Source: Candidatus Omnitrophota bacterium (lineage in GTDB: Bacteria > Omnitrophota > Gorgyraeia > Gygaellales > Profunditerraquicolaceae). From it: 64,000 nt of DNA. Position numbers and translations under genes: made by a program. The stretch is from positions 192,166-256,165 of the forward strand of contig JAKLGJ010000004.1 of NCBI GenBank assembly GCA_022710715.1, read 5' to 3'. Below the pieces are notes generated by a model. That model was not told where the DNA came from. It searched no databases and worked only from the letters and a program-made list of their open reading frames with translations. Positions 10,842 to 13,970 of this stretch are shown piece by piece. Position 1 is the first letter of the stretch; the number at the start of each line of letters is the position of its first letter.

Positions 10842-11120
10842 TTCGCAGGCGCTTTCCCCTGTTGAAATCGTTTTCAGAAGATTTCCTCCCGGGGCTTGAA
10901 AAACGCCGGATAGTCAGGTATATTCTTTACAAGAAGACAGGGATTTCTCTTTTAAGCTTCACAGACATGGGGTCTGTATAAAAAAGAGGATGCATCAACT
11001 GATGGGCAGAGTTGATGGATCGGTTCTTTTTAGACCGCAGTGTCAGTGAAGCATTTTTTTATCGCATGGGTAGGGGTACCCGCACACAAGGAGGATGCAT
11101 GAGCCAAAAGAGGTAATACA

Positions 11121-13970
11121 ATGCACAGCCACGGAGCCCGTAGGTCTTTCCCCGCTACTTTCTTTTCAGCATTCTCGCCGCTATTCTTAACTACTAGGTT
11201 GTTCTTCAGACAAGTACTTATTTTAAGCATGATTGTTGCGGTTATTTTTTCTCCGGCAGCGGGTTATTGTTTTGACTTTTCCGGAACGACCGCAACCCGA
11301 ACGCAGAACCGGCTGGCCACGAGCTTCACGCCGGTGCAGGCAACGACGGCAGCAGCGGCAGCAACGCGGCCGAACTGCGCGGCGAATGCGCTGTCCCATA
11401 TCCTCCAGGGAGTTTCTCCGGAGATGCTTCAGCAGGAGTTGAAGGGTTACACCGCCGGCCGTCAAACCACCATGCTGGGGATGCAGCAGGTAGCGATGAT
11501 CAACGGCACGGACATGCGCGGAGCGGCGTTCAGCTATGACGATCTGCGTCAGGCGCAAGGCGCGGTGATCGCGCATATGGATCTGGGAGAGGATCGAGGT
11601 CATTATGTGGATGTGCTCAAGGCAACCGCGTACGCGGTTACCTATATAGATAATCAGTCGGTGACCACCGTGTCGCGTGACGAATTCGAATCATTGTGGA
11701 CGGGAGCAGTCCTGACCGAGGATACGCAGCGGGGCAGGGATCTCACTGCGACGGAGATGCAGGAAATCAGCGGCGGTTGGGATATCGTGGGGGCGATCGG
11801 AGGTGCCGTCAGCGGCATCGCTTCCGCGGTCACCTCAACCGCCGGCGCAGTGGTCTCTGCGGTACAAACAGGTATCTCCGCCGCAGCTTCAACCGTACAT
11901 TCGATCGGCGCCGGTTTATCGAGTATGGCCAGTTCCGGCGCAGGCAATGCCGCGTCTAACACCTGCGGAAATACCGTCGGCGCCAGCCAGGGTAATACTT
12001 CTGGATCGCTCCCGGGTATCGGCGGCATTCTGACCAAAAGTACTGTCAGTCTGTCCAACAGTACCGGCGGGTCGAATTCTTCCGGTTCAGGCGTTCCCTT
12101 TGCGTATACCCCTTCTAACGGCTCGTTATTGAAAGACCTGATCAGCGCAACGACGGTTTCAGTGCAACCTGCAGCCGCCTCAAAGCAACCTGTTACCACT
12201 TCGGCTTCCGGGTCAGGCGCCTATGTTGATCAGCAGGGCCGAACCGTGCAGGTGACCACTGACGGTTTATCATATGAAGCCAGGGACAGCCGGGGCATGA
12301 TCGTGGCCAGCGGTTCCTGCGGCTCCTGGGGCAACGAGATCTACAGCCAGTCGTTGGAACCGATGGTAACTGCTCCTGCGGGTGTTTCCGGCGCGCCGGA
12401 AGCCGGCCAGCGCCCGGAAGTTCAGGCGCCGACGTCGGTGATCGATCTCGACCGGCAGGACGCGGCCAAGATCAACGCCAGCCAGCTCGCCGACGGACAG
12501 ATCGTTCGTCTGCCCGGCAATGCCCTATTGAAGGATCAATATTTCCAGTGGGATGCCGCCAAGAATGAATTTTATGAGGTTCCCCGTCCTGAAGGCGTCG
12601 AGCCGTCCAGGAACGTCAGCACCGCAGGAATCAATCTGCCTGAATTCAACGGATTGTCCGGGTTGTCGAAGAACAATCGGACAGAGACGGGCGTAAACAA
12701 TGTGATCACGCGCACTGAAGTAGTCAAAGTCAAAGAAACTGTTATTGACGGTGACGGCGGCGATTTGTATCAGGATCCCGACGGCAACATCGTGTCGGTT
12801 TCGCGCAACGGCAGCGCCTATGAAGTAAGGGATAGCCGCGGCAGTATCATTTCCAGCGGATCGGGCGGAAGCTGGAGGCAGGATCCCTATTCCGCGGCGC
12901 TGGTGCCGGTTCAGCGCACGAAGGCTGCATTGAGCAAAGAGATGCTCGACGAGAAGACAATGAATGAGAGCATGGCTGTCTGTTCCGCGGCCATGAGTAA
13001 GGGACAGCTTGAGCAGATGGCGCTGACCCGGGATGATTCTTCGGGTTTTCTGGAAAAGCTGTCAGAACTTTTTATGCCTTCGCCGCAGCAGGCGGTTTCC
13101 CGTCTTCTGGCTAAAGTTGAAGGCGCCGGCACCATTGATGCTAAAAAAGATGCCGCGACGGATATCACGCATCTCTACCGTTCAGCGGATGATCCAGGCG
13201 ATCAAGCCGTCATCAACAATGCGTTGCTCAATTCCGATGCCGGATTGATCAATGAGCGTAACCAGGCTATCTGGGAGAAGCACGGGGTGATCGTTCTGGA
13301 ATTCCAGCGGCAGTTGACGCCGGAAGAAGCCGCGACCATTGATTCCACGCTAAGCGCTTTACCGCAGGATAAAATGCCGGAAGTGATCTCTCTGGAAGCG
13401 GAATCCGCAATACAGGATCGCATTGGCGAATACCAGGCAGACAGCAGGGCTATCGTTATTTTCGCAAATGTCGCTCCCGGTGGAGCATACTGGACTGAAG
13501 ACCAGTACCGCCGCACGCTGGTTCATGAGATCGCGCATTACAATGATTTTGCCCGCAGGAGCGAGCCATTTTCCTTAAAACTTGACGGCGCAATTTCGTA
13601 TGCGTCTGACCCGAAGGTTTATAACTATGCCGAAGCATACGGCCAGAAAAACAAACTGGAAGATTATGCGACTATGCAGGAAGCCTACTTCGAGGATTCC
13701 GAATCCGTATTCTCTCGCGGTGTGGGAAATATGCTCGAGTATGAGGACGATACGTTTTTATCGAAAGTCAGCAATGTCGCTTCTTCGTACCAGCATACCC
13801 GGCAGCTTTCCGACGGTCAGACAGTGAAATGCACGTACACCTACGCTATTGACCCGGAAACCGGTGATGTGACCCGCAGCGAAGTCGCGTTGAAGGATAT
13901 GATCATAGAGGGCGAGTCGTTCCTGCTTCCGGATTTCGGCCAGACCTACGAAACCATCCGCCTTGTTTAG
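11121..13970 (+). CDS. Secreted multidomain protein: N-terminal C39-like (papain-fold) cysteine peptidase domain, Gly/Ser/Ala-rich linkers with internal repeats, C-terminal HEXXH zinc metallopeptidase domain
   Basis: Hydrophobic signal/anchor. NCAANALSH...GHYVDV matches the C39 Cys/His blocks. HEIAH lies at residues 802-806 with downstream Glu residues. AAGAGG RBS 7 nt upstream of the ATG. Confidence 0.6.
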   Translation: MHSHGARRSFPATFFSAFSPLFLTTRLFFRQVLILSMIVAVIFSPAAGYCFDFSGTTATRTQNRLATSFTPVQATTAAAAATRPNCAANALSHILQGVSPEMLQQELKGYTAGRQTTMLGMQQVAMINGTDMRGAAFSYDDLRQAQGAVIAHMDLGEDRGHYVDVLKATAYAVTYIDNQSVTTVSRDEFESLWTGAVLTEDTQRGRDLTATEMQEISGGWDIVGAIGGAVSGIASAVTSTAGAVVSAVQTGISAAASTVHSIGAGLSSMASSGAGNAASNTCGNTVGASQGNTSGSLPGIGGILTKSTVSLSNSTGGSNSSGSGVPFAYTPSNGSLLKDLISATTVSVQPAAASKQPVTTSASGSGAYVDQQGRTVQVTTDGLSYEARDSRGMIVASGSCGSWGNEIYSQSLEPMVTAPAGVSGAPEAGQRPEVQAPTSVIDLDRQDAAKINASQLADGQIVRLPGNALLKDQYFQWDAAKNEFYEVPRPEGVEPSRNVSTAGINLPEFNGLSGLSKNNRTETGVNNVITRTEVVKVKETVIDGDGGDLYQDPDGNIVSVSRNGSAYEVRDSRGSIISSGSGGSWRQDPYSAALVPVQRTKAALSKEMLDEKTMNESMAVCSAAMSKGQLEQMALTRDDSSGFLEKLSELFMPSPQQAVSRLLAKVEGAGTIDAKKDAATDITHLYRSADDPGDQAVINNALLNSDAGLINERNQAIWEKHGVIVLEFQRQLTPEEAATIDSTLSALPQDKMPEVISLEAESAIQDRIGEYQADSRAIVIFANVAPGGAYWTEDQYRRTLVHEIAHYNDFARRSEPFSLKLDGAISYASDPKVYNYAEAYGQKNKLEDYATMQEAYFEDSESVFSRGVGNMLEYEDDTFLSKVSNVASSYQHTRQLSDGQTVKCTYTYAIDPETGDVTRSEVALKDMIIEGESFLLPDFGQTYETIRLV

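Follow-up and report, generated by a model that had tools for sequence, protein, structure and literature searches.

We report a 949-residue protein of an uncultured Omnitrophota bacterium (hereafter the query), encoded in a 64-kb window (the whole stretch of DNA analyzed, 64,000 nucleotides), in which a C39 double-glycine-type cysteine peptidase domain is followed on the same chain by its own double-glycine leader. The leader begins eight residues past the end of the domain and had been overlooked in the first-pass annotation. Because the protease directly precedes its own double-glycine cut site, the protein probably cuts itself, and a self-processing pro-protein, with the C39 domain cleaving the leader downstream of it, is our preferred reading. 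In textbook accounts, double-glycine C39 peptidases belong to ABC exporters and trim small peptides; in the query, this enzyme and its recognition code stand behind a Sec-type signal peptide, with enzyme and putative substrate on one chain.

In the proposed mechanism, a pro-protein exported by Sec would process itself: the C39 domain would bind its own leader in cis and then cut after G219 (G219|W220), giving an N-terminal product of ~17 kDa (C39 plus leader) and releasing residues 220 to 949 (~730 amino acids [aa], first residue Trp). The released product would begin with an amphipathic helix, pass into a low-complexity linker followed by two beta-rich repeats, and close with a zinc metallopeptidase at its C-terminal end, the probable effector activity. 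We infer both the cleavage and its being in cis. A cysteine protease in the periplasm or outside the cell must remain reduced, which counts against the model.

Gene and homologue searches

The open reading frame (11121-13970, + strand, as are all protein features below) is present in the sequence as first annotated and is complete (ATG start, 949 aa plus stop codon). GAGG was found 8 nucleotides (nt) 5' of the ATG, and a promoter-like site lies ahead of the frame at 10896-10924. The same gene is annotated by NCBI as 913 aa with a start at M37; that start would strip the basic n-region from the N-terminus, a point against the model. All strings quoted in the first-pass annotation were located, namely, NCAANALSH (C86), GHYVDV (H161), and HEIAH (residues 802 to 806). 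The gene is surrounded by housekeeping genes, and a prepilin peptidase is encoded downstream.

Homologues were recovered by exhaustive HMMER search; word-index searches with the whole protein, its C-terminal 349 aa, or its N-terminal 201 aa returned the self-match alone. A profile scan of genome contigs seeded with the single 949-aa protein gave no match, and a scan seeded with a six-sequence alignment gave only four loci; the taxonomic census is thus incomplete. No second case of C39 and zincin in one protein was found among 1.84 billion cluster representatives. Shared synteny via a PF01171 gene, found near the query and near homologue P0019, was rejected, as those two proteins are merely 28% identical.

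N-terminus and C39 peptidase domain

Residues 1 to 50 (11121-11270) were identified by comparison as a signal-peptide-like N-terminus that has four basic residues (R7, R8, R26, and R30), a hydrophobic core (31 to 47), and then AGYC|FDFS, where a giant probable paralogue (described below) has AQA|FDFS at the equivalent position. Such an N-terminus is common to the homologues and, judged from sequence, favors both the earlier description of the protein as secreted and export by Sec. A lipoprotein was rejected because there is no lipobox (AGYC carries Tyr at −1). On inspection, the N-terminus showed no G|F-T-L-x-E-type motif, which speaks against maturation in the manner of type IV prepilins by PilD, encoded next door.

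The N-terminal domain (residues 84 to 199, 11370-11717) belongs to peptidase family C39 by sequence profile, catalytic residues, and predicted fold. Pfam PF03412 scored 36.3 bits over these residues (cutoff, 22; E value, 5.8e-9), with the match beginning at profile position 11 and positions 1 to 10 unaligned. In an alignment of 24 sequences, catalytic H161 (nt 11601-11603) was invariant, and catalytic C86 (nt 11376-11378) and D177 (nt 11649-11651) were at least 90% conserved; the His-Asp spacing of 16 residues is the same as that in ComA. The domain was modeled by AlphaFold2 at a pLDDT of 95 to 98, and the predicted structure matched PCAT1, ComA, and LahT150 (Foldseek E values, 4e-6 to 1e-4; 17 to 26% identity), the best E value being 3.9e-6 (PCAT1), while leader-bound LahT150 superposed at a root mean square deviation of 1.8 Å. 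The first-pass annotation had called this region C39-like on the understanding that profile searches should recover the fold; profile and fold searches both do so. Classical C39 members have an oxyanion-hole Gln ~6 residues before the catalytic Cys; the query has no Gln at −6, and its C39 subfamily conserves N-C-A instead, a point against the self-processing model. The domain was also described as lacking an attached ABC transporter, which agrees with our scans: no ABC domains were found in the 949-aa protein or its neighboring genes, and the query is not a fused C39-ABC transporter (PCAT).

Double-glycine leader in cis

The leader, LTATEMQEISGG (residues 208 to 219, 11742-11777; predicted scissile bond, G219|W220), is a 12-residue amphipathic segment (L −12, E −8, M −7, I −4, GG −2/−1) that fits the double-glycine consensus (hydrophobic −4/−7/−12, acidic −8, Gly −2, Gly/Ala/Ser −1) at all positions. 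It does not lie at the extreme N-terminus of a small PCAT-exported precursor but is internal, with a signal peptide plus a folded domain before it and ~730 aa after it. A relaxed motif arises in 0.45% of shuffles of the protein, which favors a true leader. Taken alone, the motif in the query is modest (E value, ~0.2 to 0.3 with 12- to 14-column profiles), and its strength lies in family-wide conservation. The strict motif was found within 45 aa after the C39 domain in 14/35 windows of homologues versus 2/639 background windows (Fisher p, 7e-18), and the leader motif was also present at two independently recovered loci. Gly at −2 occurred in 24/24 aligned sequences, equal in invariance to the catalytic His; conservation peaks at −2/−1, with the small residues G-[GAS]. 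Across ~70,000 residues of homologues, the matches that reached 6 bits were all post-C39 sites, and leader motif and C39 domain are paired one-to-one across the family. In all six frames of the 64-kb window, the site was the top match with a classical bacteriocin leader profile and again with a family profile built without the query (6.8 bits; runner-up, 2.6 bits). The idea of self-processing, already raised in the first-pass annotation, thereby gains specific support from a conserved double-glycine leader in cis right after the C39 domain.

The leader segment is ordered in the AlphaFold2 prediction (pLDDT, 95 to 98 across residues 80 to 219, then 59 or lower right after GG). Its placement against the C39 domain is equally consistent with binding and with cleavage, so the leader could instead be an uncleaved pseudosubstrate or structural strap in the C39 groove, an autoinhibitor or intramolecular chaperone, with the full-length protein working while tethered N-terminally; homologue P0057, in which Ser replaces the catalytic Cys and the leader motif is retained, also fits such a role. 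We consider this unlikely: conservation is highest at −2/−1, where G-[GAS] matters for scission rather than groove binding, and the triad is conserved in nearly all members. There is also a precedent in StbD-CT, whose C39 domain acts in cis on its own polypeptide, cutting it after a linker GG (bioRxiv 10.64898/2026.05.07.723447).

The giant probable paralogue in the same assemblies carries a leader-like site, LSVEQMQEISGA, near-identical to that of the query, and this similarity makes cross-cleavage chemically plausible. C39 peptidases normally cut separate substrates, and the query's domain might act in trans as a maturation protease on LSVEQMQEISGA, on separate GG-peptides, or on the poly-Gly tail of the DUF2207 protein. 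We regard such a role as decidedly unlikely, given that every site pairs with its own C39 domain, with zero orphans in the ~70,000 residues of homologues, and that the window holds no second leader-like site, which also tells against the dedicated maturation protease suggested earlier. The poly-Gly tail that the first-pass annotation had singled out as a substrate is indeed encoded upstream; however, it lacks the −4/−7/−12 hydrophobic pattern and matches neither leader profile, and it was rejected as a substrate. Nor was LemA, DUF2207, or PilD found in any of the 5 homologue neighborhoods examined, which also tells against that substrate.

Region after the predicted cleavage site

The center of the protein is Gly/Ser/Ala/Thr-rich, as first described, these residues making up 50 to 70% of the sequence between about 201 and 380. 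Residues 220 to 275 (11778-11945), which would form the new N-terminus after cleavage, are a Gly/Ala/Ser/Val-rich amphipathic helix whose hydrophobic moment peaks at 98 to 100 degrees and whose autocorrelation has maxima at lags 4 and 8; AlphaFold2 models helix here at low confidence. Analogous helical-repeat or transmembrane-like segments take its place in homologues, and the ~55-residue Gly/Ala-rich helix probably associates with a membrane. Eleven-residue repeats found no support in residues 220 to 297 of the query, the dominant lags there being 4 and 8; they do hold in several homologues.

A low-complexity Ser/Gly/Thr/Asn-rich linker, defined by composition, follows (residues 276 to 362, 11946-12206), and beyond it are two copies of an internal repeat (residues 363 to 415, 12207-12365; residues 545 to 597, 12753-12911) that resemble each other at 47% identity over 53 aa (E value, 2e-9). 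In homologue P0008, a similar unit comes after the cleavage site. When the leader/hydrophobic segment, the middle, and the C-terminus were scanned against Pfam and NCBIfam, only subthreshold noise resulted (Perilipin, SseC, PepSY; MPTase-PolyVal, E value of 0.08 to 0.11).

C-terminal zincin

Profiles and the structural model assign residues 690 to 949 (13188-13967) to a zincin-like metallopeptidase domain that ends in a beta-sheet subdomain. The domain has the zincin fold, and its HEIAH motif (residues 802 to 806, nt 13524-13538) lies on model helix 104-122, with E847-D848 (nt 13659-13664) on model helix 156-169, the arrangement of a gluzincin; metal binding is predicted. H802, E803, H806, E847, and D848 are at least 90% conserved or invariant, Y856 varies little or not at all, and K882 is an invariant Lys of the family. 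The gluzincin-like HEXXH zincin of the first-pass annotation is thus upheld as a fold assignment by profile searches. The family profile matched 9urd with an E value of 1.8e-7 over about 100 positions and the lethal factor and PPEP entries of the PDB at 0.06 to 0.1. Peptidase_Mx1 (PF15890) matched 7/26 relatives (best E value, 2.8e-6) and ATLF matched 9/26, weakly (best E value, 3.8e-5); the query itself matched neither, and with its zincin under every Pfam cutoff it falls outside M34 and ATLF. The domain appears to be a zincin of the lethal-factor/Pro-Pro-endopeptidase/MtfA/Peptidase_Mx1 fold group. Database entries of the family are hypothetical or unnamed, bar one named for a different domain; the domain defines a zincin family of Omnitrophota that lacks annotation and has lethal factor and Pro-Pro endopeptidases as relatives. 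This family is a candidate for a secreted effector, in a phylum presumed to depend on hosts or to be predatory.

Two proteases on one chain recall polymorphic toxins, in which Tox-PL-C39 and ALF-type metallopeptidase toxin domains are known (PMC3482391). The C39 domain could itself be the toxin, as in StbD-CT, which is a C39 toxin, and/or the zincin could be delivered to competitors. Both versions are highly improbable, in line with the outcome for the toxin role floated in the first-pass annotation: the C39 domain sits N-terminally rather than C-terminally and is a conserved head in the giant homologues; the setting is one of housekeeping genes, with a prepilin peptidase downstream and no neighbor suggesting an immunity protein; and no RHS, filamentous hemagglutinin, LXG, or PAAR trafficking domain was detected. 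The variable C-terminal toxin, adjacent immunity gene, and N-terminal trafficking domain that define polymorphic toxins were accordingly not found. That a separate PCAT or type I secretion transporter reads the leader, with the fused C39 domain a noncatalytic chaperone as in HlyB, is scarcely credible: such inactive C39-like domains exist (Foldseek matches, 3zua and 8dck), and HlyB-type domains are without the catalytic Cys, but the catalytic Cys, His, and Asp of the query are intact, its leader is internal, and no ABC transporter is encoded in the window or beside the giant probable paralogue.

Giant Omnitrophota homologues

The C39 and leader module also heads giant Omnitrophota proteins. 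The best match to the query module was the probable paralogue noted above, a 3,572-aa protein; across the family, the cargo behind C39 and leader spans ~200 to several thousand residues. The giant homologues keep C39 as a conserved head rather than as a variable tip, and their sites were found only directly after C39 domains, with no sign of multiple cleavage in the style of polyproteins. Giant Omnitrophota proteins with C39 near an N-terminal signal peptide have been described (West-Roberts et al. 2023, bioRxiv 10.1101/2023.11.21.568195), including a PF03412 cluster (bioRxiv 10.64898/2026.06.07.730766). Both papers propose autoproteolysis and state the cleavage points as unknown, and neither mentions a leader or glycine motif (bioRxiv 10.1101/2023.11.21.568195; 10.64898/2026.06.07.730766).

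We tentatively suggest that C39 plus a cis leader may be a general Sec-coupled, ABC-independent self-release device, in which the exposed hydrophobic or amphipathic neo-N-terminus would insert into a membrane (its own cell's outer membrane or a membrane of a host or prey cell), and that Omnitrophota and some neighboring lineages might mature many surface and giant proteins in this way. If so, the logic of bacteriocins would be scaled up beyond peptides, to proteins thousands of residues long.

Comparison with known systems

The query's C39 domain shares its fold and Cys/His/Asp residues with the peptidase domains of PCAT1, ComA, and LahT, and its leader bears the signature of PCAT substrates (hydrophobic −4/−7/−12, Glu −8, G-G/A/S −2/−1). 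Unlike those of PCATs, the domain is not ABC-fused, follows a Sec-type signal peptide, has its leader downstream on the same chain, and lacks Gln at the usual oxyanion position, with N-C-A replacing the usual x-C-G; the cargo, at about 730 aa or more, is a protein rather than a peptide. StbD-CT, from a CdiA-like protein of Citrobacter rodentium, likewise has a C39 domain outside an ABC transporter and cuts its own chain at GG, but its GG site is upstream of the domain, whereas that of the query is downstream with a full leader helix. StbD-CT lies at the C-terminus, acts as a toxin that cleaves topoisomerases, and is paired with an immunity protein (bioRxiv 10.64898/2026.05.07.723447), whereas the C39 domain of the query is the N-terminal head of its protein.

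Identity of the zincin to anthrax lethal factor and Pro-Pro endopeptidases (M34, ATLF), MtfA (M90), and Peptidase_Mx1 (9urd, 4l7a) is 11 to 17%, and the query differs from these in its distinctive C-terminal four-stranded sheet (ATYVY...RKEVAL...YLLPDF) and invariant K882. Peptidase_Mx1 is a [quoted passage not shown] of Bacteroides, whereas the query is no lipoprotein and has no SusC/D neighbors.

The giant Omnitrophota C39 proteins resemble the query in phylum and in arrangement, with C39 near an N-terminal signal peptide; the query is small by comparison (949 aa) and ends in a zincin. If cleavage is confirmed, the counterparts of G219|W220 would provide the first concrete cleavage site in giant Omnitrophota proteins and answer the published question of whether and where they are cut (West-Roberts et al.). 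The giant proteins could then be divided at a known position before their structures are predicted, and the module would serve as a compact N-terminal tag that removes itself and leaves an N-terminus of choice.

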